From assembly GCA_934130045.1 (NCBI GenBank), contig CAKOXI010000001.1, forward strand, positions 14,900 through 78,899: a DNA stretch of 64,000 nt. Reading direction: 5' to 3'. Position numbers and translations under genes: made by a program. The stretch comes from an uncultured Bacilli bacterium. GTDB lineage: Bacteria > Bacillota_I > Bacilli_A > RF39 > UBA660. This document shows, in pieces, positions 3,379-45,295 of this stretch (position 1 is the stretch's first letter; each line of letters begins with the position of its first letter). The notes under the pieces were generated by a model, which ran no database searches, was not told where the DNA came from, and saw only the letters and a list, made by a program, of their open reading frames with translations.

Positions 3379-3380
3379 TT

Positions 3381-7895: not shown

Positions 7896-7904
7896 TTAAT
7901 CATC

Positions 7905-21511: not shown

Positions 21512-22237
21512 TTAATTCACCTCAATATTACGTAAAATTATTTGATCTAAATTATTTTCTTGTTCTATTATTATTTCTTTCTTTTTAGCTAAATCAAGTA
21601 TAGATAAAAATGTTACAATTATGTATTCTTTAGTTATTATATCAAATAATTCTATAAAGTTTATATATTTTTTCTTTTTCAAAATATTTTTTATTTCAAC
21701 ATTTCTTTTTTCTATGGAATATTCTTTTTTTGTTATTGTTGTGTTTAATGGTTTTTTTAGTTCTTTATTATTTAAAAAATTATTAAATGCTTCTGTTAAT
21801 TTAGATATATCACTTGTTTCATTATTTATTATATCATCATTTATGACTTGTAAATTTTCTGGCTCTTTAGTATATATGTTATTTCTTTCTAATTTTAATT
21901 CTTTTAATTGAGGAATGACATTTTTATAGTTATTATATTCTATAAGTTTGTTTATTAAATTTTCAGTGGGATTAATTTCATCTTCTTCAATATTTGTGTT
22001 TTTAGGGAGTAGTGAATATGATTTTATTTCCATTAATTCAGCTGCTACACTTAAGTATTCACTTGCTATATTTAAATTTAGTTTTTCACTTTCGTTTATT
22101 ATATTTAAATATTGTGTTGCTAATTCTGTAATATTAACATCATAAATATTTATGTTTGATTTTTTTATTAAGTGCAATAATAAATCTAGTGGTCCTTCAA
22201 AATCATTAATAGTAAATTTATATTCCATAAAACTCAC
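21512..22237 (-). CDS. scpA: Segregation and condensation protein A
   Basis: The 241-aa product begins FEGPLDLLLHLIKK, the ScpA N-terminus. Confidence 0.85.
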   Translation of the reverse strand: MSFMEYKFTINDFEGPLDLLLHLIKKSNINIYDVNITELATQYLNIINESEKLNLNIASEYLSVAAELMEIKSYSLLPKNTNIEEDEINPTENLINKLIEYNNYKNVIPQLKELKLERNNIYTKEPENLQVINDDIINNETSDISKLTEAFNNFLNNKELKKPLNTTITKKEYSIEKRNVEIKNILKKKKYINFIELFDIITKEYIIVTFLSILDLAKKKEIIIEQENNLDQIILRNIEVN

Positions 22238-22363
22238 TCCAAGTAGAATTATTATATCAATTTTTTTATATTTTGTAAATTTAAATTTTTAGTGTTAGGT
22301 TTGCTAAAATTGACTTTTATGTTTTAAATTTATATAATATATTCATAATAGTTAGGTGGATTT

Positions 22364-22666
22364 ATGAAACAGTTTTTTAAAAAAGATGAAGAATTTATTT
22401 GTGATAATTGTGGTAAAAGTGTAGGAAAATTATTATATACTACTAGGGATCATTGTCCATATTGTTTATATTCAAAACATGTTGATATAAACCCAGGTGA
22501 TAGAGCTAATAAATGTTTAGGACTTTTAGTACCTATTGATATTGAAAAATTTAAAAGTAGTTATAAAATAATTTATAAATGTAATAGATGTGGTATAATT
22601 CATAAAAATATTATGGCCAGTGATGATGATTTTGAAAAAATAATTGTATTAAGTAAGAAAAGATAA
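22364..22666 (+). CDS. RNHCP-domain zinc-ribbon protein
   Basis: The product contains CDNCGK...RDHCPYCLYSKH...CNRCG, the literal RNHCP-like (RDHCP) motif. Confidence 0.6.
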   Translation: MKQFFKKDEEFICDNCGKSVGKLLYTTRDHCPYCLYSKHVDINPGDRANKCLGLLVPIDIEKFKSSYKIIYKCNRCGIIHKNIMASDDDFEKIIVLSKKR

Positions 22667-22730
22667 ATTTTCCTTTTTTTTTTTATATTTTTAGTATATA
22701 CTAAATATAGAATAAAAAGTAGGTGTTTGG

Positions 22731-24335
22731 ATGATTTTAAAAAAACCTTATAAATTTTTAATTAAAAATTTTAAGTTAATACATTTAATATTAACTATTT
22801 TAATGGTATATGTTATTTACAAATTTAATTTTATTTTTTCATTTTTTAATATGTCCGTTAGTGATTATGGTGGTGTTATTACAACTGATGCAACAGGTAC
22901 TTTATATAATCTCTATATATATTTAGCAATTATGTTGATTATAATTGTTTCTTTAGTATTGATTGGTGTATTGTATTTTAAGAAAAAACCGATTAAATTA
23001 TATATTTTAAATATTATATTTTATATTTTTGTTGCAATACTAATTGCTTATTCTTATAGTGTTGTTAGCACTATGCAACTAAAAATAGTTGATGTGAAAA
23101 TTATAAGAAATGTTAGAGATTTTTTGATTTTAGGATATTTATTACAGGTAATTTCTATTATTTTATTTGGCATTAGATCTTTAGGCTTTGATATAAAAAA
23201 GTTTGATTTTAAAAAAGATTTAGAAGAATTTGATATTACTGCCGAAGATAATGAGGAATTTGAGTTTCAATTTGAAATTGATACTAATAAGGTTCATAGA
23301 AAATATAATAAAGGCAAAAGATATTTAGGATATTTTTATAAAGAAAATAGATATTTATTTTTTATAATAAGCAGTATATGTGTTGTAATTTTAAGTTTTA
23401 CTATATATTTAGGATTTAATGTTTATACAAAGGAATTTAAACAAAATGAATATTTTAAAACAACAGAATTTATGATAGGAATTAATAACAGTTACAAAAC
23501 GATTAATGATTATAGGGGAAATGTTGTTTCTGAAAATTCTACTTTTATTATTTTGGAAATTAGTATTAAAACTAATTATTCAAAGGACCTTGACTTAAAT
23601 TTAGCACGACCAGAACTTATTGTTGGAAACAATAAATATTATCACAATACTACCTATAATGACAAATTTATTGATTTAGGCAACACTTATCTTGATCAAA
23701 CTATATCTAACAAATTTGCTAAATATTTGCTGGTTTATGAAATACCAAATAATTTAATGAGTGATGATATAACTTTTAGATATGTTGATAAAAATGCAAA
23801 TATTACTAAACTTGAATCAAAGACAATTAATGTAAAGATAAATGTTAGAAATTTAGATGAAAATAAAAAAATTACCGAATATAAATTAGGTGATACTATA
23901 GATTTTTCTGGTAGTATTTTGGGTAAAACAGATTTTAATTTAAGTAGCTGCTTTATTAGTAATAAGTTTGATATTTATTATGACTTTTGTATTGAGGATA
24001 AATGTTATAATTCAATAGAAAGGTTAAAACCATCTATTTTAAATAATTATGACAAAGTTTTATTGAGAACAATTGGTAAAATTAATTGGGATGAAAATAT
24101 CGCGGCTAATAAAAAAGATAATTTGTTTAGATTTTTATCTATGTTTGGAACTTTTAGATATGAAATTGATGGTGTTGAAAAGGAAGATTTTACCACATTA
24201 AAAAATGTTGTTTCAAATAGAAAACAGGAAACAGATACTTATTATTTGGAAGCTATTAATGAAATAATTAATGCTTCAAAAATTGATTTGATTATTAAAG
24301 TTAGAGATTATACTTACATTTATAATATAAAATAA
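22731..24335 (+). CDS. Hypothetical polytopic membrane protein with a large C-terminal extracytoplasmic domain
   Basis: The 534-aa product has about 5 N-terminal TMs followed by a ~300-aa soluble domain. It sits at the proximal boundary of the accessory island. Confidence 0.45.
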   Translation: MILKKPYKFLIKNFKLIHLILTILMVYVIYKFNFIFSFFNMSVSDYGGVITTDATGTLYNLYIYLAIMLIIIVSLVLIGVLYFKKKPIKLYILNIIFYIFVAILIAYSYSVVSTMQLKIVDVKIIRNVRDFLILGYLLQVISIILFGIRSLGFDIKKFDFKKDLEEFDITAEDNEEFEFQFEIDTNKVHRKYNKGKRYLGYFYKENRYLFFIISSICVVILSFTIYLGFNVYTKEFKQNEYFKTTEFMIGINNSYKTINDYRGNVVSENSTFIILEISIKTNYSKDLDLNLARPELIVGNNKYYHNTTYNDKFIDLGNTYLDQTISNKFAKYLLVYEIPNNLMSDDITFRYVDKNANITKLESKTINVKINVRNLDENKKITEYKLGDTIDFSGSILGKTDFNLSSCFISNKFDIYYDFCIEDKCYNSIERLKPSILNNYDKVLLRTIGKINWDENIAANKKDNLFRFLSMFGTFRYEIDGVEKEDFTTLKNVVSNRKQETDTYYLEAINEIINASKIDLIIKVRDYTYIYNIK

Positions 24336-24407
24336 TGTAAATAGATACCTTAATTTATTGATTTTTAAAAAAAAGTATATTATAATTAGAATGCGAGGTA
24401 GTATATA

Positions 24408-25064
24408 GTGATAAAAAAAATATTGAAAATTTCATTTTTGTACTTTTTTTTGAGTTTATTACCTATTAGTGCTAAAGCCTTTTGTAGAGAAAGCAGTATG
24501 TCTTCACTCAAAGAACTTGCTAGCAATATAAATGTAAGCTATTCATATAAAATTCAGAATGATTATGCTTTATTTGATGTTACTTTGGACAATGTATTTG
24601 GTGAAGTTTATGTACTAGATGAAAATCAAAATAGATATGATTATAATAAATATAATAAAGGCGTTTTAGTTTTTACAAACCTTTCACAGGGAAAAAATTA
24701 TGCTTTTCAAATTTATGCTAATGGTGGTGAATGTGGTGATGCATATTTGACCACTGTTTATGCTACTACACCTACATATAATAGATATTATAATTCAAAT
24801 ATATGTAGTAATGCTAAAGAATATGAATTATGTGGAAGATGGGTTAGTCATAATTTGAATTATCATGATTTTGTTAATAAAGTTAAAGAATATGTAGAAA
24901 AAAAAGATAATGATAAAACAATCGAAGATAATAAAAGTATACCTACAATATCTTATGTACTAAATTTTATTGAAATGTATTATGTGTATATAATTATTAC
25001 CATTGTTATTGTTATTTTACTAATTAAATATATAAAATATAAACGCGATACATTTGGATTTTAG
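24408..25064 (+). CDS. Hypothetical secreted protein with a C-terminal TM anchor
   Basis: It starts with GTG and has a signal peptide LLPISAKA and a C-terminal TM YVYIIITIVIVILLI. It is the first gene of the co-directional island block. Confidence 0.4.
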   Translation: MIKKILKISFLYFFLSLLPISAKAFCRESSMSSLKELASNINVSYSYKIQNDYALFDVTLDNVFGEVYVLDENQNRYDYNKYNKGVLVFTNLSQGKNYAFQIYANGGECGDAYLTTVYATTPTYNRYYNSNICSNAKEYELCGRWVSHNLNYHDFVNKVKEYVEKKDNDKTIEDNKSIPTISYVLNFIEMYYVYIIITIVIVILLIKYIKYKRDTFGF

Positions 25065-25078
25065 AAAAAGGTGAATTT

Positions 25079-25459
25079 ATGAAAAAAATATTGATTGTCG
25101 TTAATTTAATGATAATTGCATTTGCCATGAGTGGGTGTGGATGCAGCAAGAAAAATAAAATATTACAGTGTACTAGTGAACTAGATGAATATAATGAAAA
25201 AAAATATGTTGAAGCAAAATTTGAAGATGATTATTTAGTAAGTCAATCTATTGAAACTACAACAGTTTTTGATAGTGAAATAAATGCGACAAGATTTTAT
25301 GAAATGTACAAAGATTCTGACATGTATGAAACATCAATAAATGGATTAGAAGTTACTTTGAAACAAAATGCTGACAATTCCTCGACTGATGATATATTTA
25401 AATATGATAATTTCTATAATTCAATGATTGAAAATAATTTTAAATGTAAAAAAAAGTAA
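25079..25459 (+). CDS. Putative small lipoprotein
   Basis: The product begins MKKILIVVNLMIIAFAMSGCGCSK, with a lipobox. Confidence 0.5.
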   Translation: MKKILIVVNLMIIAFAMSGCGCSKKNKILQCTSELDEYNEKKYVEAKFEDDYLVSQSIETTTVFDSEINATRFYEMYKDSDMYETSINGLEVTLKQNADNSSTDDIFKYDNFYNSMIENNFKCKKK

Positions 25460-25474
25460 CAAGGTGGTGATATA

Positions 25475-28400
25475 ATGAAGAAAAAAAGATTTTTATTATT
25501 AATGATTATGTTTATTACCAACTTTTTAATAGTTACAAATGTAAGTGCCGCGGTTGGAGAGTGGATTGGTGATTATTGTGATTCATGTGGTACTTATGGA
25601 ACTGCGGGAAAATGTGATCAGGTTAAGTATACTAATGTTGGCTTATTTCGAGTAACATTTTATTTGAATGGTGAAAAAATCGGCTCTAGTGTTAATGTTA
25701 GCAGCAACGAAACGTATAAAGATTTAGCAAAAAATGCAAAGTGGCATTGGGGTGATGGAAAAACTGATATTGTATCATATGCATCAGGTCAAACTTTAGG
25801 TACTCCTGTTTCTGGCGGACTTGATACAATTGTTATTAATGGTATAAATGTAAGTAATGTTCAAAACAAATTAAGCCCATCAAAAAATTCAAAAAATGTT
25901 CAGAAAATTTTAACTGAAGCTGGTATTACAAAATTTAAATTTAAAAATGGAAAAATATATTATACACCAGATGATGGAGTGTGCGAGGAAGATTATCAAA
26001 TTCAAATGGTTGTTGAATCTATGCAAGTCATTAATTGGCTATGTACTACAGATGGACTTGATAATCATAGGTGGATTGGGACACCTTATGAATTAAATAA
26101 TGGTTTGTTGCAACAAGGTTATGATAGTCATGTTGGCGGAAACGGTTATATGAGTGGCTCAATTGTTGATAAAACATTATTAAGCTCTCTTAGAATAGAT
26201 AAAGATGTTAAAATTGGTAATGTTGCTTTTACTTCAGTTGATGATTGCTTGAAAATACATATTAGAGGGTACAAACCAACGGAAGGGTATGGATTTAATG
26301 TTTATGATTTAACAGGAGAGATAAAAATTGATTGTGAACCAGAATGTTGTGTTCCATGTAATACATCAAATCCAAATTTAATCACTGCAATAAATTCTGG
26401 TAAATTTGCATGTGATCCAAATAACTGTGATGGTGAAGACGAAATAGCAACTGACATTGATTCAGAAGGAAAGCTTGTTTGTGAACCTTATATTCCTGAT
26501 GATTGTTGTAATCCAACAATAGAAGATTGCTGTGAGATTGGAACTAAATTATGTGGTGGTGGTATTGTTACTAAATCATATTATGACAAATATTGTACTA
26601 GCACATGTGAATATCAAATTGATCCCCCTACAGCGACTACTGGAGTGTGTACAACTGAAAAGTTACATTCTGAGTCTAAATTTACAGATGGTCATTTTAG
26701 TGAAAATTACTGGGTTTACCTAAATTTATTTTATCAAAACAAAGGTGCAATTTATCAAGAAGAAATGTCATCAACGTATTGTGAAACATATTGTCAAGAA
26801 AAAACTATAATAGAATTACCTGAAAATTATCCATATGTAAATGCAGGAAGGTATTTTACTTGGACAATAGCCGATTCAAAGGATTCTTTAATAAAAGAAA
26901 CTGTTTATAAAAACTGTGCTACTAATATTGAACTTGATAAATGGCGTAAAGATTATAAAAATGCATTAGATGATATAAATGGAAACTTTTATTATGTAAA
27001 GAACGATACATCTCCTAGCGGAATAGAAAATAGGGCTTATGAATTGATTGATGCATACAATAAATGTATGGGTGATGCAAGTTCTCCATCTGATGAGCAA
27101 AAACAAGCATACAGAGATGGACTAAATATAGATGATATAAGAGATGGTGTAATTCAAGATATTAATGATTGGAATAGTAACTTGCAAAATGCAAAAGATG
27201 ATTATGGTGATGGGTCATATGGTAGTCATTGGGATAATGATTTTGGATGTGATGCACATCATCCAGGATGTTTTAATGATATGTCACCAAAACCAACTGA
27301 TGATGCCTCTATTGATGCTGCTACTGAAGAAAAAATTAATGAAATGTTTAAACAATCCCGCGAAAGCGTTTGCATTACTATGTTTTCAGATGGTACGAGA
27401 AGGCTAACTATTTTGGCAAATGCTAGGGGTGATTCAATAAGTATTGATGCTAAAAGCCGTAATGTAACTTATATTGAAAAAAGCTTGGAACCTACTTTAC
27501 ATAATTTGATTTCTCAATTAAAAAATTGCCAGTATGAAGATAATCCGGAAGACGGGCCAGAACTTTCACTTTCTGAATATTTTGAGAAATATTTAAGCAA
27601 TTTAAATTCCACAGATTTGAAACTAAATTTAAATTATCAAACTTATTTATCAGAAAGAGAATACTCAAATGATGATATGATTAAAAACTCAAACATTATT
27701 GAACCATCAAAAAATGGTGGCTGTAATCAAAAAGATAAAAATAAATGCAATCCGAAAGATATTTTTGAAAGCAATGTTTGTGAGAATAAAATTATAAAAG
27801 CTAATTCTAATGATGGTGAAGGTATTAATGAATATGGAATTGGTTTTATTCCATCAGTGCTTGGTGAAGATTCAGTTTACTCAAAAAAACAAGATATATC
27901 AGGGAATTGGAAATCTTATGTATTCCTTAAAACTACTTCGGAAAATGATTTTAAATTAAAAAATAATATTAATGCTTGTATTTGCAAAGACGGTACGATT
28001 ATTGATGCGGCTGAAGATGGAAGTTGTGAATGTCCTGATATGAATTCTGTAACAGAAATAATTGCTGATATTTCTGATCAATATTCTTGTTATTTTGAAT
28101 GGAAAACAACGTATTATTATACAACTGTAGAAGATGGAAATTTAAGTGTTGAATATATGACTCCTACAGGATTATATCCGTTACAGCTTGATTACTCTAA
28201 TATTGGTACAAATAACGGACATTTTAGCAATTTTATGAGAAATGGAATTCTTGGAAGTGTTCCACATTGTCAAGGTGGTGTATGCCATTATTCTGATGAA
28301 GATGGGAAATGTTATTTTATAGTTAATAATGAAGTTATTACTGATGGTGGAAAAATTTATGACAATATTTGCCCAAATGGTAATTGCGGTGATGATGATA

Positions 28401-28921
28401 AATGTACTGAAGGGGATTGCTCTAATTATTGTGAAGTAGGCCATTGTTCTAATGATTCTAGTATTGGTGGAATGGAAATTATTTATAGGCAAGTTGATTT
28501 AAATAATCCATTTCCAGATAGAGAAGCTGGCAAAAATTGGCAAGGACATGAGAGTATAATAACACTTAATCGTGAAGTGGAAGGCTCAAATTTGTATAGT
28601 AGTAAACTTGAACCAGTTTATTCAATTACAATGACACCTGCAACTATAAAAGAAATTAGAAAGGTTAATGAAGCATTAAATTATGATTATTCATCAATTG
28701 GTACTATGATTTTTGATAAAGAAAAAATAACTGGTGGAGTAAGTTATATATTACGTGGAAGTTTAAAAAATATTGCTGAAAGTACTGGTGGAACATTTAC
28801 TATTAATTTAAATGATGCTAATACCGATGGAAGATTTGATGAAATTATGAATAATCCAAGTATAGACAGTTCTGGTAATTTAACAACTTGTCGTGAAATA
28901 GCAAGTGAGGTGATAGGATGA
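25475..28921 (+). CDS. Very large (1148 aa) secreted, extremely cysteine-rich protein; candidate pilus- or T4SS-associated adhesin or substrate
   Basis: The product has a signal peptide (FLIVTNVSAA). Dense CxxC and CC clusters occur throughout (DYCDSCGTYGTAGKCD, CCVPCNTS, DDCCNPTIEDCCEIG, CSNYCEVGHCSND). There is no LPxTG motif and no TM. Confidence 0.55.
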   Translation: MKKKRFLLLMIMFITNFLIVTNVSAAVGEWIGDYCDSCGTYGTAGKCDQVKYTNVGLFRVTFYLNGEKIGSSVNVSSNETYKDLAKNAKWHWGDGKTDIVSYASGQTLGTPVSGGLDTIVINGINVSNVQNKLSPSKNSKNVQKILTEAGITKFKFKNGKIYYTPDDGVCEEDYQIQMVVESMQVINWLCTTDGLDNHRWIGTPYELNNGLLQQGYDSHVGGNGYMSGSIVDKTLLSSLRIDKDVKIGNVAFTSVDDCLKIHIRGYKPTEGYGFNVYDLTGEIKIDCEPECCVPCNTSNPNLITAINSGKFACDPNNCDGEDEIATDIDSEGKLVCEPYIPDDCCNPTIEDCCEIGTKLCGGGIVTKSYYDKYCTSTCEYQIDPPTATTGVCTTEKLHSESKFTDGHFSENYWVYLNLFYQNKGAIYQEEMSSTYCETYCQEKTIIELPENYPYVNAGRYFTWTIADSKDSLIKETVYKNCATNIELDKWRKDYKNALDDINGNFYYVKNDTSPSGIENRAYELIDAYNKCMGDASSPSDEQKQAYRDGLNIDDIRDGVIQDINDWNSNLQNAKDDYGDGSYGSHWDNDFGCDAHHPGCFNDMSPKPTDDASIDAATEEKINEMFKQSRESVCITMFSDGTRRLTILANARGDSISIDAKSRNVTYIEKSLEPTLHNLISQLKNCQYEDNPEDGPELSLSEYFEKYLSNLNSTDLKLNLNYQTYLSEREYSNDDMIKNSNIIEPSKNGGCNQKDKNKCNPKDIFESNVCENKIIKANSNDGEGINEYGIGFIPSVLGEDSVYSKKQDISGNWKSYVFLKTTSENDFKLKNNINACICKDGTIIDAAEDGSCECPDMNSVTEIIADISDQYSCYFEWKTTYYYTTVEDGNLSVEYMTPTGLYPLQLDYSNIGTNNGHFSNFMRNGILGSVPHCQGGVCHYSDEDGKCYFIVNNEVITDGGKIYDNICPNGNCGDDDKCTEGDCSNYCEVGHCSNDSSIGGMEIIYRQVDLNNPFPDREAGKNWQGHESIITLNREVEGSNLYSSKLEPVYSITMTPATIKEIRKVNEALNYDYSSIGTMIFDKEKITGGVSYILRGSLKNIAESTGGTFTINLNDANTDGRFDEIMNNPSIDSSGNLTTCREIASEVIG

Positions 28922-29319
28922 AGGAATCACTTTGGAGTATATTTATTGTTGGGGTTGGAGTTACAATGATATTCTTTATATATTTTTTTCAATCTTTAAC
29001 TAATACAGATGAACAAAATTATGCAATGTTAAAAGAAACTGTTGAAGCTTCAATGTATGATTCCTTTGATCTTGCATCATATCATGCAAGTGGGGTATAT
29101 AGAATTGATGCTGAAAAGTTTGTCGAAAGTTTTTACAGGAGATTTGCTGAAAATGCAAATTTGGCTAGAACTTATGAAATAAAAATAATGGACATCAATG
29201 AGACTCCACCTAAAGTAAGTGTAAAGGTTTCTTCCAGTCAAAGCAGTAGCTTTACTGGTGAAATAATAAATTTTGATATTTCTAATACTATTGATGCAAT
29301 ATTAGAAACGCCATATTAA
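28918..29319 (+). CDS. Small N-terminally anchored membrane protein (pilin- or pseudopilin-like topology)
   Basis: Its ATG overlaps the stop of the giant upstream gene (ATGA). An N-terminal TM (IFIVGVGVTMIFFIYFF) is followed by a ~100-aa domain. Confidence 0.4.
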   Translation: MKESLWSIFIVGVGVTMIFFIYFFQSLTNTDEQNYAMLKETVEASMYDSFDLASYHASGVYRIDAEKFVESFYRRFAENANLARTYEIKIMDINETPPKVSVKVSSSQSSSFTGEIINFDISNTIDAILETPY

Positions 29320-29336
29320 AAAGAAGGAGAGAAAAT

Positions 29337-30152
29337 ATGAATAATGTAATTATTTCAGTAAAAAAATTTTTTACAAATAAGAATACTGTAACAATTCTTG
29401 GTGTAATTGTAATTATTTTAATTATTTATTTTGGTTACAATTCACAAATTAAAAAAGCAACTAACCCTATACAGGTTCCAGTTGCAAGTAAAACAATACA
29501 ACCTAGAACATTAATTACTGATGATATGATAAAATTAACAAGTATACCATCTGTATCAGTATCTACTAATGTAATACGTAGTAAGGCAAGTGTTGTTGGA
29601 AAATATACTGCTGTTAATACTGTAATACCAAGTGGTAGTATGTTTTATCAAGAAGCAGTTGTCAGTAAAAGACCTGATGCTGTTTTTGAAAATGTCAATG
29701 ATGGAGAAGTTTTATATAATTTTCCAGTTACTATGGCTTCAACTTATGGTAATTTGATTTTGCCTGGTAGTTATATTGATATTTATATGAAGGCTGTTAA
29801 TGGAACAAATGGATTAATGGTTGGCAAATTATTAGAAAATGTTAAAGTCTTAGCTGTTAAGGATAGTAGTGGTAATGATGTTTTTGAAGATACTTCAACA
29901 AATAGAACTCCTGCTTATATCTATTTTGGTGTAACAGAAGATATTAATATTTTATTACGTAAGGCTCAATATATGACAAGTAATTCTGTTGTGTTATTCC
30001 CTGTTCCACATGGTACAATTGTATCTGATGAGGATTTAGTAACTGAAGTTAGTACTCAGTATTTAAGAGATTTTATTAATGCTAATACAATTGTTATTGA
30101 TTCTACAAAAACTGATAATGTATCTAATACTACTACAAATGGTGAACAATAA
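29337..30152 (+). CDS. CpaB/RcpC-like pilus assembly protein (N-terminal TM plus SAF domain)
   Basis: An N-terminal TM is followed by a SAF-like segment (IQPRTLITDDMIKLTSIP...ASVVGKYTAVNTVIPSGSMF), matching the architecture of Flp-pilus CpaB. Confidence 0.5.
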   Translation: MNNVIISVKKFFTNKNTVTILGVIVIILIIYFGYNSQIKKATNPIQVPVASKTIQPRTLITDDMIKLTSIPSVSVSTNVIRSKASVVGKYTAVNTVIPSGSMFYQEAVVSKRPDAVFENVNDGEVLYNFPVTMASTYGNLILPGSYIDIYMKAVNGTNGLMVGKLLENVKVLAVKDSSGNDVFEDTSTNRTPAYIYFGVTEDINILLRKAQYMTSNSVVLFPVPHGTIVSDEDLVTEVSTQYLRDFINANTIVIDSTKTDNVSNTTTNGEQ

Positions 30153-31297
30153 TGAATGATAATATGTTTCAATCAATCGACTTTGGACCTTTAAAGGAGT
30201 ATCTTGATACTGATGATATCACCGATATTTCTTATAGTAATGGTGGACAAGTATGGTTGAAAACATTGTCAAGAGGAAATTATAGGGTAGAAAATCCTGC
30301 TATAAATAATCAGTTTATGGAAAAACTAGCATTTCAGTGTTCAAATGTTATGGGTAAAACATTTAATATGGCTCATCCGTTTTTGGATGCTGAAAGTGCT
30401 GAGTTACGTCTTAATTTTGTTCATGAATCTATTGCTAGAAATGGTATAGCTGTCGTAGTTCGTAAAACTCCAGCTAAAATTAGGCTTGAAAAAGAAAAAA
30501 TATTAAGAGAAAATTATATTACTCTTGATATACATAATTTTTTAGAATACTGTGTTTTAGGTCATTGCAACATAATTGTTTGTGGTGAAACTGGTTCTGG
30601 TAAAACTGAATTTGTTAAATATCTTGCTTCAAAAATTCGTGAAAATGAAAAGATAATAACAATTGAGGATACATTGGAACTTCACCTTGATAGAATATTT
30701 CCACATCGTGATATTGTTGCGATGAAAACGAATAATATTGCTTCATATACTGATGTATTGGTAACATGTATGCGCCAAAATCCTAAATGGATTTTATTAT
30801 CAGAGGTACGTAGTGCTGAAGCTGTTTTGGCGGTTCGTAACTCAATATCTTCAGGACACTATATTTTATCTACTATTCATGCTGATAAAGCTGCTTCAAT
30901 ACCAAGCCGTATGTATAGTTTGCTTGAGACTAATCAAGATATTGATCAATTTTTAAAGTCTATTCATAGATATGTTCAAATTGGTGTATATATACGTGGT
31001 TATCAAGATAAGAAAACAGGGCATTTTATTCGTGAAATAGCTGAAGTAACTGAATTTTATGTATCAAAAGATAATAAAGCTGAGTCAAATACAATTTATA
31101 GAAAAACTCCTGAGGGAAGTGTACATCGTAATAATCCAAGTCCATATTTAATTGATTATTTAGAGGCACAGGGAGTAATTTTACCTAAAGATATTATTGA
31201 TGTTGATAAAAATCAAAATGTAGTAGTTAATAATGATAATTTAAAAAACATTACAAATGAAAATAATACAGAAAATATAGAAGTTTTATTTGAATAG
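30152..31297 (+). CDS. TadA/CpaF-family secretion ATPase (VirB11/GspE superfamily)
   Basis: The product has Walker A IIVCGETGSGKTEF, an Asp box/Walker B IITIEDTLEL and a His box LSTIHAD. It is coupled to upstream and downstream genes. Confidence 0.75.
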   Translation: MNDNMFQSIDFGPLKEYLDTDDITDISYSNGGQVWLKTLSRGNYRVENPAINNQFMEKLAFQCSNVMGKTFNMAHPFLDAESAELRLNFVHESIARNGIAVVVRKTPAKIRLEKEKILRENYITLDIHNFLEYCVLGHCNIIVCGETGSGKTEFVKYLASKIRENEKIITIEDTLELHLDRIFPHRDIVAMKTNNIASYTDVLVTCMRQNPKWILLSEVRSAEAVLAVRNSISSGHYILSTIHADKAASIPSRMYSLLETNQDIDQFLKSIHRYVQIGVYIRGYQDKKTGHFIREIAEVTEFYVSKDNKAESNTIYRKTPEGSVHRNNPSPYLIDYLEAQGVILPKDIIDVDKNQNVVVNNDNLKNITNENNTENIEVLFE

Positions 31298-31308
31298 GAG
31301 GAGTTTGC

Positions 31309-32211
31309 ATGAATTTTCTAATGTTAATAATTATATCAGCTATTATAATATTTATTACTGTATACCGTAGAAATATTGGAACTGATGTTTATAAATTTTT
31401 TACAAATAAAGCTGGTTTAATTTATGATAAATTTGCCCCATATTCTTTTAAAATTATAAGAGAAAAGGTAAAAGATTTAGGTCAGGAATATACTCCAAGA
31501 CAATATGCAATTCAAATAGTTACTTTTGCAGTTTTTGGCTTTATGGTTTCATATATGTATTTTTACAGTATAATTATTTCTATTATGTATGCGTTAATAG
31601 CAATTGCTGTAATACCATATTTAACATACTTGCGTTGTAAAAGAGTATATAGTGAATTTATTTTTGAACAAATTCAGGTTTATACTACAAATACTATTAT
31701 GGAGTTTGCTACTACTCAATCCTTTGTTAAAGCTTTGGAAGGAGTAGTACAGTCAGGTGTACTTGAAGATCCTGTTAAGTCTGATGTTGAGTTGATGATC
31801 AGTATGGCCTATGAAAATGGTACAATTGAACAATCCTTAGTATATATGAATGAAAAATATGATTATTATGTTGTAAAAAATATGCATCAGTTGTTTTTAC
31901 AAATAACTAATGAAGGTAGTAAAGATTCTAGTGAAGCATTAGAGAATATGTCTCTTGATATAGATATGCTTGTAGAGGGAGTATATCGTGATAGGATGGA
32001 TCGTGCTAATTTCCATAAAAAATTTTTACAATTTGGTATAATTTTATATTTATTAGTTATGTTAGTTCAGTTTATGCTTGGAGTTGATTCCTATATTTCA
32101 TTATTAAGTAATTGGATGGTACAAGCAATACTTCATTTGATAATAGTTATTAATTCTTTATTTTTACTAAATGGAGAAAAATATTATAATGAGAATGTGG
32201 GTGGTGAATAA
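31309..32211 (+). CDS. TadB-like inner-membrane platform protein (T2SSF-type)
   Basis: It has an N-terminal TM plus two C-terminal TMs. The cytoplasmic segment carries T2SSF-like LEGVVQSGVL and GTIEQSLVYMNEKY elements. Confidence 0.5.
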   Translation: MNFLMLIIISAIIIFITVYRRNIGTDVYKFFTNKAGLIYDKFAPYSFKIIREKVKDLGQEYTPRQYAIQIVTFAVFGFMVSYMYFYSIIISIMYALIAIAVIPYLTYLRCKRVYSEFIFEQIQVYTTNTIMEFATTQSFVKALEGVVQSGVLEDPVKSDVELMISMAYENGTIEQSLVYMNEKYDYYVVKNMHQLFLQITNEGSKDSSEALENMSLDIDMLVEGVYRDRMDRANFHKKFLQFGIILYLLVMLVQFMLGVDSYISLLSNWMVQAILHLIIVINSLFLLNGEKYYNENVGGE

Positions 32212-32993
32212 TGAATTTTATAATAATTGCGGTAATTATTTTGTTTATATTAGAATATAACAAACAAATTGATACAAAAAAATTTATTAATGACATTGAC
32301 CCTTATTTTCGATTTTTAATGGAAGATGATTATAAATTTTTGTTAACCGTTAAATATGGTAATGATGTTGATTTGGACAAAATGTTTTCAAAAAGAATCA
32401 GAGATGGATTGGTAGTAATTGTTTTTATAATATTTTTGTTTTTATATAAATTAAATTTTTTATATGTTATTTTTTCCATAGTTGTTGGTTTTTTAGCATT
32501 CAAATTACCATACAATCAGTTAAAAAATTTTTATAAAAAAAATTTGTATAAAATTAATTTGATGTTACCTTATTATTTAAAAGGATTAGAAATTTTAATT
32601 CAACATTATACTGTTCCTGTTGCTTTGAGTCGTTCAGTGGAAACAGCTCCAGAAATTTTTCAACCTGGTTTACAAAGACTTGTAGCAAGAATTGAAGAAG
32701 GTGATTCATCTGTTGATCCATATATGGATTTTGCAAAAGAATATCCTGTTAGAGATTCGATGAGAATGATGAGACTATTATATCGTTTAGGACTTGGTAG
32801 TCAGGAAAATAAGCAAGAACAGTTAATAATGTTTTCTAAAACAGTTTCTACGTTACAAAATAAGTCTCGTGAACAAAAATATAAGGATCGTTTGGATCAT
32901 ATGGAAAATAAAACAATGCAGATGTTATTTGCAACAGGTGGTGGAATACTACTTTTGATGTTATTTGCAATGATGATGATGATGAAATTTTAG
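32211..32993 (+). CDS. TadC-like inner-membrane platform protein (T2SSF-type)
   Basis: Its start overlaps the TadB-like stop. The topology is TMs, a cytoplasmic helical domain (LQRLVARIEEGDS) and C-terminal TMs. It ends in an (ATG)5 repeat encoding MMMMM. Confidence 0.45.
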   Translation: MNFIIIAVIILFILEYNKQIDTKKFINDIDPYFRFLMEDDYKFLLTVKYGNDVDLDKMFSKRIRDGLVVIVFIIFLFLYKLNFLYVIFSIVVGFLAFKLPYNQLKNFYKKNLYKINLMLPYYLKGLEILIQHYTVPVALSRSVETAPEIFQPGLQRLVARIEEGDSSVDPYMDFAKEYPVRDSMRMMRLLYRLGLGSQENKQEQLIMFSKTVSTLQNKSREQKYKDRLDHMENKTMQMLFATGGGILLLMLFAMMMMMKF

Positions 32994-33066: not shown

Positions 33067-33285
33067 ATGAAAGAAGCTGCAAGTGAGGCAAATTTAACTG
33101 TTATTGCTATTGTATTAATAGGTGTTGTAGCTGCAGTAGTAACTCCACTTATTAGCGGGTTATTAAATGGCCAAGCAAAAAGATCATGTTGTAATTCTTT
33201 AGGTGGAGTTTATAGTGGTGGAAAATGTGAAGGTGTTGAAGAAGCCGAACTAAATACATGTATGGAAGGTCAAAAGAACGAATAA
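33067..33285 (+). CDS. Small (72 aa) Flp-pilin-sized membrane protein; candidate major pilin
   Basis: The product begins MKEAASEANLTVIAIVLIGVVAAVV, i.e. a short charged leader then a hydrophobic helix. Its position after tadC matches the flp position in Tad loci. A canonical G/XXXXEY motif is not evident. The tail has Cys pairs (SCCNS, GKCEG, NTCMEG). Confidence 0.35.
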   Translation: MKEAASEANLTVIAIVLIGVVAAVVTPLISGLLNGQAKRSCCNSLGGVYSGGKCEGVEEAELNTCMEGQKNE

Positions 33286-33308
33286 TATTTATTTGAAGGG
33301 AGTAACTT

Positions 33309-34028
33309 ATGAGGGAAGGTATTGGAAGTGTAGCATTATATAATATAATTATAGTATTTATTTTTGTAACTTTTTCTGTTTTAGCTGGAACCATGAGTTA
33401 CTCTAAAGCCTTTAAAACAAATAATAGAATTATAAATGCTATTGAAAAATATGAAGGATATAATGTTAATTCAAGCAACGAAATTGATGAAATCTTAGGT
33501 AATATTGGGTATAGATTAAGTGCATCAAAAAAATGTTCTAAAAAAAGAGGTTATGAAGCATTGAGTACTTTAAATAGTTCATATGATTTTTGTGTTTATG
33601 AAATACCAGAAGAAACACGTGAATGGAATGGTAGATATAGTACATATGGTGTTATTACCTATATCTATTTAGATATGCCAGTAGTTGGTGATTTTTTCAA
33701 AATACCTGTATATGGTCAAAGTAAACCAGTGTTTAGTTTTAATGCTAAAAATGCTCCATCGAGAGATGATTTGACTGTTACATATGATGTTGAGGTTGAG
33801 CCTGAATATTTGGCAAATCGTACTGATTGTTATATTATCTTTTCAAGAAGTAATCTACCTAAAACCTTTGATGATGTTTTTAATGTTATAAAAAGATTTT
33901 CTGATGGGGAAAGTGTTTCGGCTTTATTTAGCATTGAGGGCTTTAATATAAATGTATCTAATGGAAGATTAAATATAAGAGCCGATGGAGAATTAATTGA
34001 GTCTTTTTCGTACTGTATGATTGATTAA
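33309..34028 (+). CDS. TadE-like pseudopilin (N-terminal TM)
   Basis: An N-terminal hydrophobic segment (ALYNIIIVFIFVTFSVLAGTMSYSKAF) is followed by a domain paralogous to the next gene (YDFCVYEIPE...YGVITYIYLDMPVVG). Confidence 0.45.
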   Translation: MREGIGSVALYNIIIVFIFVTFSVLAGTMSYSKAFKTNNRIINAIEKYEGYNVNSSNEIDEILGNIGYRLSASKKCSKKRGYEALSTLNSSYDFCVYEIPEETREWNGRYSTYGVITYIYLDMPVVGDFFKIPVYGQSKPVFSFNAKNAPSRDDLTVTYDVEVEPEYLANRTDCYIIFSRSNLPKTFDDVFNVIKRFSDGESVSALFSIEGFNINVSNGRLNIRADGELIESFSYCMID

Positions 34029-34058
34029 TTTTATATTTTTAGTGATTGAGGTGATTAG

Positions 34059-34541
34059 ATGAAAGAGTCATTGGGTAATGCATTTGTTTTTGGATTTTTT
34101 ACAATTTTTGCTTTTTTAACTTTGTTTATTTTAATTACTGCAATCAATTATTCTAGGGCAGTAAAGATAAAAGATAGATTATTAACTTATGTTCAGTCAT
34201 ATGCTGAAAATCATGCTAATGTTGATAGTGATGGTGCTGTAGAAATTATAAATTTTGATGATCCTGAATTTAGGGATATGATTGATCATGAACTATCTGT
34301 TTTAGGATATAGAAGAAATGTTAATGTAACTAATACGACAGAATGTCCAAATCGTGAAGGGGCAATTATTGCAAATACTAGTAGTACTTATAAATACTGT
34401 ATTTATGCAAGGGAAACAAGCAGAGGATACTATTATGGGGTGATGACTTATATGTATTTTGATATACCTATAATTGGTACTACTTTAGAATTTCCAATAT
34501 ATGGTGAATCTAAAATAATTTATAATTTAGGTGATAAATAG
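34059..34541 (+). CDS. TadE/TadF-like pseudopilin, paralog of the preceding gene
   Basis: The product begins FVFGFFTIFAFLTLFILITAINYSRAV and contains YKYCIYARE...YGVMTYMYFDIPIIG. Confidence 0.45.
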   Translation: MKESLGNAFVFGFFTIFAFLTLFILITAINYSRAVKIKDRLLTYVQSYAENHANVDSDGAVEIINFDDPEFRDMIDHELSVLGYRRNVNVTNTTECPNREGAIIANTSSTYKYCIYARETSRGYYYGVMTYMYFDIPIIGTTLEFPIYGESKIIYNLGDK

Positions 34542-34553
34542 GAAGGTGTTAAA

Positions 34554-35564
34554 ATGAATGTAATTATTACTAATAAATATGCATCAATGTTGCAAGGACT
34601 TGATATAGATATTATCAAATCTTTAAATGGGGAATTTGATGCGGAAGAAATAATATCTACTTTTCAAAATTTTTATTTTCAAAGAATGATATTGGATATT
34701 ACTGCAATAAAAAATTATAGAGATATTAGGAATTTACAAAAACTTTCTATTGCCTTAGATATGGAAAAAGTAATTTTATTACTTGATGATTCTATTGAAA
34801 GTTCTTCAACAGAATATTTATCTAAGTTAATTTCGATGGGAATTTATAATTTTACTAAAAATGCTGAAGGAATTATGTATTTATATAATAATCCTAATTC
34901 ATATAGAGATGTTGCTCATATTCATCAACTTGAAATCGAAAAGGATGAAAAAGTTTCTGATGATTCTGGGGATACTTATGTGCGTGGTCGTGGAACTACT
35001 ATAATTGGTATAAAAAATATGACTAAGCATGCTGGAGCAACAAGTTTGATATATATGATGAAAAAGCAATTGTCTAAAAATTATTCTGTAATTGCAATTG
35101 AAGTTGATAAACGTGATTTCATGTATTATGGTGATAAGGAAATGGTTAATACTACAAGTGTTGAGGTTGGTAATACTATTGCTAAATATAGTGATAGAGA
35201 TATAGCACTTGTTGATATAAATGACAGTAAACAAGCTGAAAGTATTTGTAATACAGTAATTTGTTTATTAGAACCATCTATTATTAAACTTAATAAATTA
35301 ATGATGTTAGATAGACATGCTTTTTCTAAACTAAAAGGAAAAGATGAAAAATATAAAATAGTTTTAAATAAGAGTTTATTAAGTTCTAAGGATGTATTAG
35401 AATTTGCCTATGAGGCAAAAACAAAAGTTGTTTATAATTTGCCACCACTTGATGATCGTGAAAGAAATATTCATGCATTGAATGGATTTTTAATTAAACT
35501 TGGATTTGAAGTGGAAGAAGATTTTGAAGAACAAAAAAAGAATAAAATATTAGGACTTTTTTAA
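34554..35564 (+). CDS. Possible TadZ/CpaE-like (ParA/MinD-fold) protein with a degenerate P-loop
   Basis: Its position after the pseudopilins is suggestive. The segment GRGTTIIGIKNMTKHAGATSLIYMMKKQL resembles a deviant Walker A in which the GKGGxGKT consensus has been lost. Confidence 0.3.
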   Translation: MNVIITNKYASMLQGLDIDIIKSLNGEFDAEEIISTFQNFYFQRMILDITAIKNYRDIRNLQKLSIALDMEKVILLLDDSIESSSTEYLSKLISMGIYNFTKNAEGIMYLYNNPNSYRDVAHIHQLEIEKDEKVSDDSGDTYVRGRGTTIIGIKNMTKHAGATSLIYMMKKQLSKNYSVIAIEVDKRDFMYYGDKEMVNTTSVEVGNTIAKYSDRDIALVDINDSKQAESICNTVICLLEPSIIKLNKLMMLDRHAFSKLKGKDEKYKIVLNKSLLSSKDVLEFAYEAKTKVVYNLPPLDDRERNIHALNGFLIKLGFEVEEDFEEQKKNKILGLF

Positions 35565-35659
35565 AAAAATGATATAAATTGTAAATAAACCGTTTGTTTT
35601 ATTGATATTTGTTGACTTTTGTAGTATTTTATTGTATTATTTTTTTAGGAGGAATTATT

Positions 35660-36004
35660 ATGATGAATTTATTTAATGTATTGGCATCTTGTGCTGGTGG
35701 TACAATTTCTTTTGATGCTGTTTTACCATCAACAATTAGTGCGATTGTTAATATTTTAAAAATTGCTATTCCAATTATGGTTATTATATTTGGACTTATT
35801 GATTTGGGAAAAGCAGTTATGGCTCAAAAAGAAGATGATATTAAGAAAAATCAAGGATTACTTATCAAAAGAGTTATAGTTGCAGTATTTGTTTTCTTTG
35901 TTGTTGCAATTGTTCAATTTGTTATTGGAATTGTTGGTGGATCTGATAGTGAAAATATTACATCTTGTATTAATTGTTTTATCAATAATGATTGTGGCAA
36001 TTAG
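35660..36004 (+). CDS. Small two-TM hairpin membrane protein, family member 1 of 5 (KAVMAQKEDDIKK loop); VirB2/TrbC-like topology
   Basis: Its start is MMNLF after the RBS TAGGAGG. The product reads TM1 (IPIMVIIFGLIDLGKAV), a polar loop, TM2 (VIVAVFVFFVVAIVQFV) and a Cys-containing tail CINCFINNDCGN. Confidence 0.5.
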   Translation: MMNLFNVLASCAGGTISFDAVLPSTISAIVNILKIAIPIMVIIFGLIDLGKAVMAQKEDDIKKNQGLLIKRVIVAVFVFFVVAIVQFVIGIVGGSDSENITSCINCFINNDCGN

Positions 36005-36014
36005 TATAAATTAT

Positions 36015-36037
36015 AGAAGCAATTTGCTTCTTTTTTC
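36015..36037 (+). terminator. Rho-independent terminator
   Basis: A hairpin agaagcaa-tt-tgcttct is followed by T6. Confidence 0.55.
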
Positions 36038-36058
36038 TTTTTATAAATTATTGTTGTA

Positions 36059-36087
36059 TTGTTAAAAATTTATATATATGTTATAAT
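36059..36087 (+). promoter_or_regulatory. Sigma-A-type promoter with an extended -10, upstream of the small-pilin-like gene and the T4SS genes
   Basis: The -35 TTGTTA (36059-36064) is 17 nt from a TG-n-TATAAT (36079-36087). Confidence 0.45.
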
Positions 36088-36128
36088 TTATCTATGGATA
36101 TGTATGAATATAAAAATGGAGGATTTTT

Positions 36129-36476
36129 ATGGAAAAAATAAAAAAAGTTTTATTTATTTGTTGTTTTTTTAGTATTTTATTTATTCCTACAGTCTTTGCA
36201 GAAAGCTGTAAGGAATTATTAGGTACTAATGCAGCTCGAATGATCAAGGATTTTTATTATATGGTTGGATATGTTGTTGCTGCGGTAGCAGTAATATTAG
36301 GAATACTTGATTTTTTTAAAGTATTTACTGGCGGAGATAAAAGTGAATTAAAGGGCGTTGCACAAAAATTTGCAAAGAGAATTATAGCACTTGCTATATT
36401 CTTGATGTTACCAGGTTTAGTTGAATGGATTTTAGAAATTGCTGGAATAACTAACCATGGAGGAACTTGTTTATAA
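36129..36476 (+). CDS. Small secreted two-TM membrane protein, divergent member of the same hairpin family
   Basis: The product has a signal peptide (FIPTVFAES) and two hydrophobic helices (VVAAVAVILGILDFFKVF, IIALAIFLMLPGLVEWI) around a polar loop, and ends GGTCL. Confidence 0.45.
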   Translation: MEKIKKVLFICCFFSILFIPTVFAESCKELLGTNAARMIKDFYYMVGYVVAAVAVILGILDFFKVFTGGDKSELKGVAQKFAKRIIALAIFLMLPGLVEWILEIAGITNHGGTCL

Positions 36477-36510
36477 ATTGTTTGTATAATTATTGCGGGG
36501 AAGTGATTGA

Positions 36511-38658: not shown

Positions 38659-38757
38659 GTTTCAATGATTGTTAAGTAATTTATTTATATTGATTGTATT
38701 TTGTTTCATATTTATGTTATAATTATATAATATGTTAAAGATTTGGAGATGATTTGA

Positions 38758-40887: not shown

Positions 40888-40916
40888 AAAATTATGAATA
40901 AAAAGGAGGTTTATAT

Positions 40917-41240
40917 ATGTATGGAAGATTTTTAATTCCTGCAAACTCGAAAAAATCGGCATTGATACTTGGTTTATTTAAGCCTGCCGATTTAGTTATA
41001 ATATCGATAGGTGTGATTTTGTCATTTATTTTATTACTTACATTACCTATTGAACAAATGACATATACGATAATTGCTATTTTTCCTGCTTCATTTGCTG
41101 CTTTCTTAGTTTTTCCAATGGCATATTATCACAATGTAAGAACATTCATTGTTATACTTTTTAAGTATTTAACATCTAGACAAAAATTTGTATGGAAGGG
41201 TTGGTGTTATATAGATGAAGTCAACAAATTCAAAAAGTAA
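40917..41240 (+). CDS. VirB3-like small membrane protein (PrgI/ConD/Orf17-type)
   Basis: The 107-aa product has two TMs and lies immediately upstream of, and overlapping, the VirB4 ATPase, the conserved position for VirB3-like proteins. The RBS is AAGGAGG. Confidence 0.5.
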   Translation: MYGRFLIPANSKKSALILGLFKPADLVIISIGVILSFILLLTLPIEQMTYTIIAIFPASFAAFLVFPMAYYHNVRTFIVILFKYLTSRQKFVWKGWCYIDEVNKFKK

Positions 41241-41775
41241 ATATACTAATGATGTATTTGTTCCAATTAAAAGCATAACAAATGGTATGATTATTTTGGA
41301 TAATAATTTAAAAGTTTCTGGTGTTAAGATTAGACCAAGAAATATATTTATTCTTGAACAAGAAGCGCAAGATATTATTATTTCAAATCTAAAAAATGTT
41401 TATAATATGATTGATTATGAATTTTGGATAATTGCAGCTGATAGACCAGTTGATATTCATGTATATTTATCTCAATTGCAACTTCTTTATAATTCTGTAA
41501 CAAGTCAAGCAAAAAGAAAATTAATAACGCAAGATATTCAAAAAGCAAATATGTTTATGAATAATAATGTTGTTGATACTGAGTATTATTTGCTTTTCAA
41601 ACATAAAGATATTGATGTTATACAAAAGAGAATTCGTAATTTAATTAATAATTTTGCAAATGCTGGTTTAACTACTGCGCAGACATCCAATGATGATTTA
41701 AGAATGGTATTAGATAACTTTTTAAATGGTGGTCAAACCACTACGTTTGGGACGGTGATGAGTGATGGATATTAA
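41215..41775 (+). CDS. VirB4-family T4SS ATPase, N-terminal fragment (frame 1)
   Basis: The 186-aa fragment ends 14 nt inside the next ORF. Together the two parts reconstitute a ~780-aa VirB4/TraE/ConE-like protein. Confidence 0.55.
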   Translation: MKSTNSKSKYTNDVFVPIKSITNGMIILDNNLKVSGVKIRPRNIFILEQEAQDIIISNLKNVYNMIDYEFWIIAADRPVDIHVYLSQLQLLYNSVTSQAKRKLITQDIQKANMFMNNNVVDTEYYLLFKHKDIDVIQKRIRNLINNFANAGLTTAQTSNDDLRMVLDNFLNGGQTTTFGTVMSDGY

Positions 41776-43549: not shown

Positions 43550-43562
43550 TTTTATTTATTAG

Positions 43563-45281: not shown

Positions 45282-45295
45282 AAAATGGTGGTTTT

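Follow-up and report, generated by a model that had tools for sequence, protein, structure and literature searches.

A window of 64,000 nucleotides (nt) from an uncultured Bacilli bacterium (lineage RF39, UBA660; assembly GCA_934130045.1, contig CAKOXI010000001.1, positions 14,900 to 78,899 of the forward strand; 25% GC) contains a plus-strand open reading frame (ORF; 25475-28921) of 1148 amino acids (aa) whose product, the "large protein" below, is exported without an anchor and is one member of an uncharacterised modular family. Members of this family are the obligatory partner of the pilin-like protein DUF5411 in a Tad-like filament operon, fused to a chromosomal type IV secretion system (T4SS), of low-GC gut Bacilli; the gene is also the most divergent and fastest-evolving of its cluster. 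As to function, the reading favoured here, tentatively and at somewhat less than an even chance, is that the large protein acts, docked on DUF5411, as a filament-associated module for specificity or adhesion.

An exported protein and its family

The N-terminus of the large protein (MKKKR-FLLLMIMFITNFLIV-TNVSA/AVGEW, the slash marking the predicted cleavage site) has all three regions, n, h and c, of a Sec signal for signal peptidase I, and all complete family members start with a comparable signal peptide. The mature protein is about 125 kDa and acidic, with an isoelectric point of 4.5. No hydrophobic segment was found beyond the signal peptide, where the highest 19-residue Kyte-Doolittle window reaches 0.94, nor did the protein contain an LPXTG-like motif, a C-terminal hydrophobic segment, a wall-binding domain or the class III signal and retained hydrophobic helix of a pilin-type N-terminus: the signal is a standard Sec one with a V-S-A cleavage site. 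An earlier model-made reading of the letters alone (the sequence-only reading) was therefore right to see a signal peptide and no anchor motif, and right that the stop overlaps the start of a small pilin-like gene, the TGA (28919-28921) sharing an ATGA with the ATG (28918-28920) of the DUF5411 gene.

That reading had also proposed remote homology searches and structure prediction, which returned no family, PDB or fold match. Scans of Pfam, NCBIfam and PHROG gave nothing for the large protein, a Pfam scan of 55 relatives matched no family (adhesin, Ig-like, toxin and enzyme domains included), PDB chains compared with the single sequence and with family profiles gave chance-level matches only (E of at least 0.05), and Foldseek searches of PDB and viral models found no similar fold. 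AlphaFold2 (AF2) models reached a predicted local distance difference test score (pLDDT) of 54 for the full length (36 sequences) and 72 for aa 800-1148 (90 sequences). A word-indexed search of 5.8 billion proteins yielded 19 clusters, to which a profile search of the same database added no members; an exhaustive HMMER scan of 1.84 billion representative proteins yielded 91 matches, about 22 of them full-length (1150-1500 aa) and the remainder 470-1040 aa or fragments, sharing only two blocks. No source names any member, and no description of the family or of the fused filament-T4SS block was found in the literature. The homologues did not turn out to be annotated cell-wall proteins of an ordinary kind, and the majority are intact, so that the outcome named beforehand as refuting the sequence-only reading was not observed. 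In two loci (L055 and L068) several short ORFs stand in place of the family member and of most other cluster genes, through decay or through assembly or sequencing errors; elsewhere two members stand in tandem on one contig (L021, 5492-7729 and 7878-10067), so that the gene can be duplicated.

The layout of the large protein (Table 1) was drawn from alignments and from comparison with minimal members of 435-462 aa, which consist of core blocks A and C joined by a short linker; the core is conserved across members of 435 to 1494 aa. Invariant residues of block A are C436, C440, E442, P449, G458 and C481. Block C carries the family signature, [IV]YRxIDLxNPFP...GxNW...NNR...Y..P.Y.[IF]T.TP..IK.IR, with R1005, F1013, R1016, N1021 and W1022 unchanged across 90 sequences; in most relatives where the motif was detected, its distance from the C-terminus is 87-182 aa. 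Block B is modelled at a pLDDT of 76-89 in the C-terminal model, and the region aa 290-400 at about 70-85. Helices are predicted at about aa 487-710 with low pLDDT, and the hinge, in which the copy number of CxxGxC differs among relatives, is modelled with low confidence, as if disordered. The query shows the traits of the family throughout: the signal peptide, block A, the C-terminal signature, and a position directly upstream of DUF5411-CpaB-ATPase.

Conserved position beside DUF5411

In all, 84 related loci were collected, and synteny was judged, with the window proteins as probes, where flanking DNA sufficed (about 80). In every locus with enough DNA, an ORF with the family signature is directly upstream of DUF5411, the two overlapping by 4 nt or being at most 13 nt apart in almost all intact loci; after DUF5411 come CpaB, the ATPase, two membrane proteins, pilin-like genes and VirB2/VirB6-like genes. 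The arrangement holds for the weakest homologue (P0133, E = 6e-4) and for relatives so distant that the alignment covers only a 65-aa motif. The link to a filament and secretion apparatus, proposed from the letters alone, is thus strongly supported. It could be argued that the large protein is an unrelated surface protein that merely adjoins pilus and T4SS genes by coincidence, as it has no detectable homology to any known pilus or T4SS component; given that the position, and often the 4-nt overlap as well, is unchanged across about 80 loci including very distant relatives, this is very improbable indeed.

The whole block (22731-48117, about 25 kb) joins a Tad-like filament module to a T4SS of the type found in Firmicutes and in the integrative and conjugative elements (ICEs) of Mycoplasma. 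Its chromosomal position recurs in related genomes, as does its gene order in about 60 metagenomic loci. The host genomes of the relatives are metagenome-assembled genomes from the gut, labelled uncultured "Bacilli" or "Tenericutes", and their loci have a GC content of 24-36%. Searches with tblastn of plasmid and phage collections gave no match for the large protein, and there is therefore no evidence that its gene rides on known mobile elements. The pilus cluster of TANB77 (PMC11680825) was considered as the same system and rejected, its gene architecture being different.

Another possibility is that the large protein is a secreted substrate, either a colonisation factor or a toxin, released to the medium, perhaps with help from the filament, and not retained on the apparatus. 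Pilus-dependent secreted factors encoded in type IVb pilus operons, such as TcpF and CofJ, are an established precedent, and a Cys-rich, acidic protein with a Sec signal and no anchor would suit such a role. However, no toxin or enzyme domain was found in the large protein or in the 55 relatives scanned, and its universal presence, conserved C-terminal core and translational coupling to a pilin-like gene better fit a stoichiometric partner. T4SS effectors and substrates are recruited from the cytoplasm by a coupling protein and normally lack a Sec signal, yet the query and all its relatives have one; moreover, a monoderm has no outer membrane and so no need of pilus-assisted release. On this balance we regard a released substrate as improbable. 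Among the roles suggested by the sequence-only reading (tip adhesin, secreted substrate or effector), that of effector or toxin is accordingly unsupported, and that of adhesin or specificity factor fits the divergence, cassettes and partner lengths described below.

Divergence and exchange of cassettes

Global identity between the large protein and its relative P0010 is about 40%, compared with 71-81% for the neighbours encoded in the same locus (L001), namely DUF5411, CpaB, the ATPase and the two membrane proteins. Against the closest other genome (L082), in which the flanks have 86-89% nucleotide identity, the ratio of nonsynonymous to synonymous substitution rates (dN/dS) is 0.18-0.29 in the alignable parts of the large gene and 0.03-0.06 for the ATPase and membrane proteins. 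Divergence is uneven along the gene. The N-terminal cassette is 96% identical to that of P0002, with a dS of 0.098 compared with 0.4-0.8 in the flanking genes in the L082 comparison, while dS rises to 0.8-1.25 over residues 286-495; nucleotide similarity to L082 or L084 is lacking over the central 945 nt despite the similar flanks (86-89% identical), the amino-acid identity of this cassette being 33%. P0003 and P0004 have unrelated N-terminal domains attached to the same downstream sequence as P0002.

The low-dS stretch extends from the lipoprotein gene through the N-terminal domain (25079-26330; dS 0.10-0.23 against L082, the rest of the cluster being at 0.4-0.8), which suggests recent recombinational exchange of the segment. 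The RNHCP gene (22364-22666) likewise has a low dS, 0.10. A search of 22000-30000 for DNA repeats of the kinds that accompany shufflons, diversity-generating retroelements or phase variation found only chance-level AT-rich matches, and no recombinase; in view of the lack of shufflon-like or tandem repeats, the variation arises by recombination between lineages. In L082, a 616-aa large serine recombinase (2928-4778, minus strand) lies a few genes upstream of scpB; no recombinase is present at the matching place in the window.

These patterns bear on a further model, in which the large protein is a structural component of the envelope that replaces the secretin/RcpA layer, forming with CpaB and DUF5411 a wall-spanning collar or conduit, and in which the variable segments are exposed loops shaped by phage or immune pressure. 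CpaB connects to the secretin in diderm Tad systems, and a protein encoded near CpaB in every cluster, with a core conserved over members of 435 to 1494 aa and with three more conserved extracytoplasmic or membrane proteins encoded just upstream, would suit such a model. It accounts less well for the rate and manner of change: machine parts of the same cluster are 70-85% conserved, the large protein has 30-40% identity or less, and whole domains are swapped between close relatives. In addition, the large protein has neither a membrane anchor nor a wall-binding domain, and the extra mass carried by the pilin-like partner in some lineages, including Big_2 domains, suggests display rather than a conduit. 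A structural role therefore seems unlikely, although it retains appreciable weight.

Reciprocal lengths of the two partners

The DUF5411 protein begins with MKES[FL]W (MKESLW in the window) followed by a pilin-like hydrophobic helix, and the two pseudopilin-like genes of the block begin alike, with MKESxG and a hydrophobic helix. DUF5411 has 1664 homologue clusters, of which the best 120 are 62-99% identical. Its length is inversely related to that of the family member encoded upstream (Spearman rho = -0.82 in 37 non-redundant loci, a correlation that is not phylogenetically independent): upstream proteins of 767-1459 aa, and the 610-aa member of locus L020, are paired with DUF5411 proteins of 133-142 aa; those of 591-752 aa with DUF5411 proteins of 287-319 aa; and those of 435-462 aa with DUF5411 proteins of 570-1029 aa. 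This reciprocity suggests that the two proteins form one functional unit in which variable exposed mass can be carried on either partner.

Among the long DUF5411 proteins (395-1029 aa; L081 4397-7486, L027 10323-12035 and L072 892-2079), all with an upstream member of only 435-462 aa, there are Cys-rich C-terminal extensions, with 40 cysteines in that of L081, and the L027 protein has two Big_2 Ig-like domains (E = 2.5e-14).

Cysteine content and possible disulfides

The sequence-only reading called the cysteine content of the large protein extraordinary. The enrichment is real: 47 cysteines, or 4.09%, compared with an average of 1.36% in the other 41 ORFs tallied in the window (binomial tail 8e-11). 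Its degree was overstated, since this is about three times background and the motif counts are modest (CC three times, CxC and CxxC twice each); both cysteine-rich peptides that had been quoted are present, at aa 342-363 and 969-994. The repeated disulfide-rich modules that had been suggested were not seen, a self-BLAST of the large protein giving no internal repeats and just four CxxGxC hexapeptides; the tandem Cys-rich units of fixed pattern that mark cystine-knot and similar proteins are thus absent. At 32 of the 47 positions cysteine is found in at least 80% of sequences (36 full-length homologues), and the cysteines are thus no mere chance product of composition.

Daniels et al. (PMC2823432) took an even cysteine count as a sign that disulfides form. 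Of 100 non-redundant relatives, 69 have an even count (p = 2e-4), and this bias together with the conserved positions suggests that the large protein, whose own count of 47 is odd, may form disulfides. A search of the window for a thiol-disulfide oxidoreductase gene found none. In two loci only, both from a distant relative (L013, 8674-9105, and L014, 307-738), a thioredoxin/PedC-like gene, possibly for an extracytoplasmic thiol-disulfide oxidoreductase, adjoins the cluster on its upstream side.

Cysteine makes up 1.5-2.4% of most members of 590-770 aa and 3.3-5.3% of most longer ones, with the 610-aa member of L020 (3.9%) as an exception; cysteine richness thus characterises mainly the large-protein clade and not the family as a whole. 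Clusters of cysteine also occur in further exported components encoded in the block (5.6% cysteine in the 72-aa pilin-like protein, 3.5-3.8% in the VirB2-like proteins): the former has four, and both VirB2-like proteins (35609-36476) have C-terminal cysteine. The first VirB6-like protein (36511-38658) has cysteine-containing stretches such as CKSYLCQSYNCGS and CKCYSC, and two minus-strand ORFs elsewhere in the window, neither with a Pfam match, are also high in cysteine (51924-52739, 12 in 271 aa; 53123-53803, 14 in 226 aa).

Aerobic Firmicutes tend to exclude cysteine from exported proteins (PMC2823432). The statement that such a density is unusual for Firmicutes is thus documented for aerobic members of the group and weaker here, because the source is probably a gut anaerobe. 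A Cys-rich exported family with an even-biased count suggests extracytoplasmic disulfide formation in a Firmicute lineage.

Proposed role

The favoured reading can be set out as a series of steps. The large protein would be exported by Sec, and its conserved core (blocks A, B and C; aa 396-495 and 812-1100), stabilised by cysteines, would fold outside the membrane. The core would then dock on DUF5411, co-produced through the ATGA-coupled start, and this docking would place the large protein on the filament or at its tip. The N-terminal (aa 27-285) and central (aa 496-811) cassettes would face outward and set the binding target, which might be a host surface or a T4SS partner cell. A role in adhesion or specificity fits the fastest evolution in the cluster, the exchangeable cassettes, and the inverse length relation with DUF5411, which has Big_2 domains in one lineage.

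Several points weigh against it. Docking on DUF5411, surface display and a binding function are things we infer, and fast evolution and mosaicism would also suit any exposed structural component subject to pressure from phages or immunity. Neither an adhesin domain nor a known fold was found in the large protein, whose AF2 models are weak at the scores given above, and its 47 cysteines are an odd count. On the DUF5411 side, hhalign comparison with the pseudopilins aligns just 25 N-terminal residues (probability 14%), a test for homology between the DUF5411 extensions and the large protein found none, and shared ancestry enters into the correlation of lengths. The label "Tad" is itself soft: the matches of CpaB and the ATPase fall short of the curated cut-offs, the ATPase is nearest to VirB11, and the TadB, TadC, TadZ and pilin labels are based on position and topology.

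If the favoured reading is true, it would show by what means gut Bacilli that are abundant, uncultured and small in genome select the host surfaces or partner cells that they engage. In diderms, the type IVa and IVb pili are known to owe binding specificity to non-pilin accessory proteins; to our knowledge, no such protein has been established for Tad-type filaments or for monoderms. The family is a candidate for such a protein, being universal in one type of cluster, with no known relatives and with clear exchange of cassettes.

Organisation of the block and its surroundings

The large gene had been placed at the head of the block; it is in fact the fourth gene, as three others precede it and co-occur in relatives (Table 1). 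Orthologues of the first, the 534-aa gene, whose product has no family match, occupy the same position in L001-L010, L017, L020, L023 and L082; the 218-aa gene has orthologues that precede the family member in distant loci as well, and the 126-aa lipoprotein gene is confined to close relatives (L001-L005, L009 and L017).

Table 1. Positions in the window of the segments of the large gene and of the other genes of the block (aa, residues of the large protein unless given as a gene size).
Feature	Position	Strand	Basis or remark
534-aa gene, true first gene of the block	22731-24335	+	Polytopic N-terminal part and large extracytoplasmic part
218-aa gene	24408-25064	+	Signal peptide and C-terminal membrane anchor, read from sequence
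126-aa lipoprotein gene	25079-25459	+	Lipobox ...AMSGC; N-terminus weakly matches lipoprotein families
Large gene, Shine-Dalgarno-like AAGGTGGTG	25461-25469	+	5 nt ahead of ATG
Large gene, Sec signal peptide, aa 1-25	25475-25549	+	Predicted cleavage VSA/A, read from sequence
Large gene, N-terminal cassette, aa 27-285	25553-26329	+	Exchangeable between relatives
Large gene, Cys-rich spacer, aa 286-395	26330-26659	+	15 of the 47 cysteines, including all three CC pairs
Large gene, core block A, aa 396-495	26660-26959	+	YCxxYCQE...LPxNYPxxNAGRYFxW, conserved
Large gene, central hypervariable cassette, aa 496-811	26960-27907	+	Mostly predicted helical
Large gene, core block B, aa 812-960	27908-28354	+	INACxCKDG..., YPLxLxYxNIG..HF, conserved
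Large gene, Cys-rich hinge, aa 961-1000	28355-28474	+	Tandem CxxGxC hexapeptides
Large gene, core block C (aa 1001-1100), tail (aa 1101-1148) and stop	28475-28921	+	
DUF5411 gene, 133 aa	28918-29319	+	Pfam match, 4e-50
CpaB/RcpC-like gene	29337-30152	+	RcpC 2.5e-6; CpaB TIGR03177 5e-14
T2SSE-family ATPase gene	30152-31297	+	T2SSE 3e-27
Two polytopic membrane protein genes, TadB/TadC positions	31309-32211, 32211-32993	+	Position only
Filament-assembly core overall (CpaB/RcpC-like gene to TadC position)	29337-32993	+	
72-aa pilin-like gene (4 cysteines)	33067-33285	+	Sequence features, conserved order
Two pseudopilin-like genes	33309-34028, 34059-34541	+	Sequence features, conserved order
336-aa gene in TadZ position, last of the pilin-like group	Group 33067-35564	+	Conserved order
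Monoderm-type T4SS module	35609-48117	+	Mycoplasma-ICE/Firmicute type

In the filament module, the ATPase scores best against VirB11 and then against TadA-type models, and the 72-aa pilin-like, pseudopilin-like and TadZ-position genes have no curated family match. The T4SS module contains, in order, two VirB2-like genes, two TrbL/VirB6-like genes, VirB3/VirB4 in three ORFs, an M23 peptidase, a lipoprotein and the coupling protein VirD4; VirB4 matches the Mbov_0397 family at 2e-106, below the curated cut-off, and VirD4 matches the CD1115 family above it. The three overlapping VirB3/VirB4 ORFs (40917-41240, 41215-41775 and 41762-43549) are colinear with three stretches of the Mycoplasma ICE VirB4 model (Mbov_0397 family; 894 aa), namely residues 2-95, 96-276 and 295-891. 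The distant locus L013 ends with a 108-aa ORF followed by a 186-aa TraC-like ORF, the start of the same arrangement, which favours a genuine split over a frameshift.

The block is flanked by scpA, scpB and RNHCP upstream and by rhodanese, SPFH, RmuC and RNase R genes downstream. Further away, at 6761-8762 on the minus strand, are three consecutive genes, each for a product with a Tim44-like domain. The conserved chromosomal union of a filament module and a T4SS of Mycoplasma-ICE type merits attention in its own right; no relaxase or integrase was found in the window.

Comparison with known systems

PilY1 and PilC are tip-associated non-pilin adhesins of type IVa pili with a C-terminal beta-propeller domain. 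The large protein resembles them in its size (about 1000-1200 aa), in having a Sec rather than a prepilin signal, in being encoded beside minor-pilin genes, and in combining a conserved C-terminal part with a variable N-terminal one. It differs in lacking the PilY1/PilC domain and any sequence or fold similarity, in its richness in conserved cysteines, and in its setting, a monoderm with a Tad-like filament fused to a T4SS.

A second comparison is with PilV of the IncI plasmid R64, a true pilin whose C-terminal segments are switched by a site-specific shufflon. The thin pilus of R64, of type IVb, serves a T4SS (PMC12102498). Shared features are a type IV-type filament beside a conjugation-type T4SS and a specificity determinant that occurs in exchangeable variants; unlike PilV, however, the large protein is no pilin, has no shufflon-like repeats or recombinase, and varies between lineages and not within a genome.

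Type IV pilins and pseudopilins have a class III signal, that is, a short leader, and keep the hydrophobic alpha-1 helix in the mature protein. Among them are the modular type IV pilins PilB and PilC of Streptococcus sanguinis, which, like TadG-type pseudopilins, offer a parallel in that the type IV filament of a Gram-positive bacterium comes to display additional binding modules. In sister lineages the parallel extends to DUF5411 itself, a pilin-like module with Big_2 or Cys-rich extensions; the large protein differs in its cleavable Sec signal and in lacking the pilin-type N-terminal helix. Judged by the defining domains and pilin signals looked for in its sequence, it belongs to none of these three groups (PilY1/PilC, PilV or the modular pilins).

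Mating adhesins of the PrgB type, like other sortase-anchored Gram-positive adhesins (MSCRAMM type), are LPXTG-anchored and have known adhesin domains, neither of which was found in the large protein. The likeness is that PrgB (mentioned in PMC12102498) is also large, is exposed at the surface, shares its locus with the T4SS of a monoderm, and mediates cell contact. A further counterpart, by gene context, is offered by the loci predicted in gut Clostridia (Roseburia, Ruminococcus and Eubacterium), where DUF5411 is found beside CpaF/PilC genes and a putative cell-interaction protein (PMC9523054): the CpaF-family ATPase and the cell-interaction protein are points of likeness, but the protein reported there is internalin-like, and T4SS genes are not reported.

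Finally, the block as a whole (22731-48117) might be a vertically inherited chromosomal machine in which a type IV-type filament joins cells, a conjugation-type T4SS moves DNA or proteins between them, and the Cys-rich protein with its swappable cassettes is the determinant of partner recognition. We consider this distinctly unlikely as it stands; such a machine, for cell exchange or epibiosis, would be comparable to the Ups pili and Ced system of archaea (Sulfolobales), or to the type IV pili and T4SS of epibiotic Patescibacteria (PMC12102498, PMC9905601).

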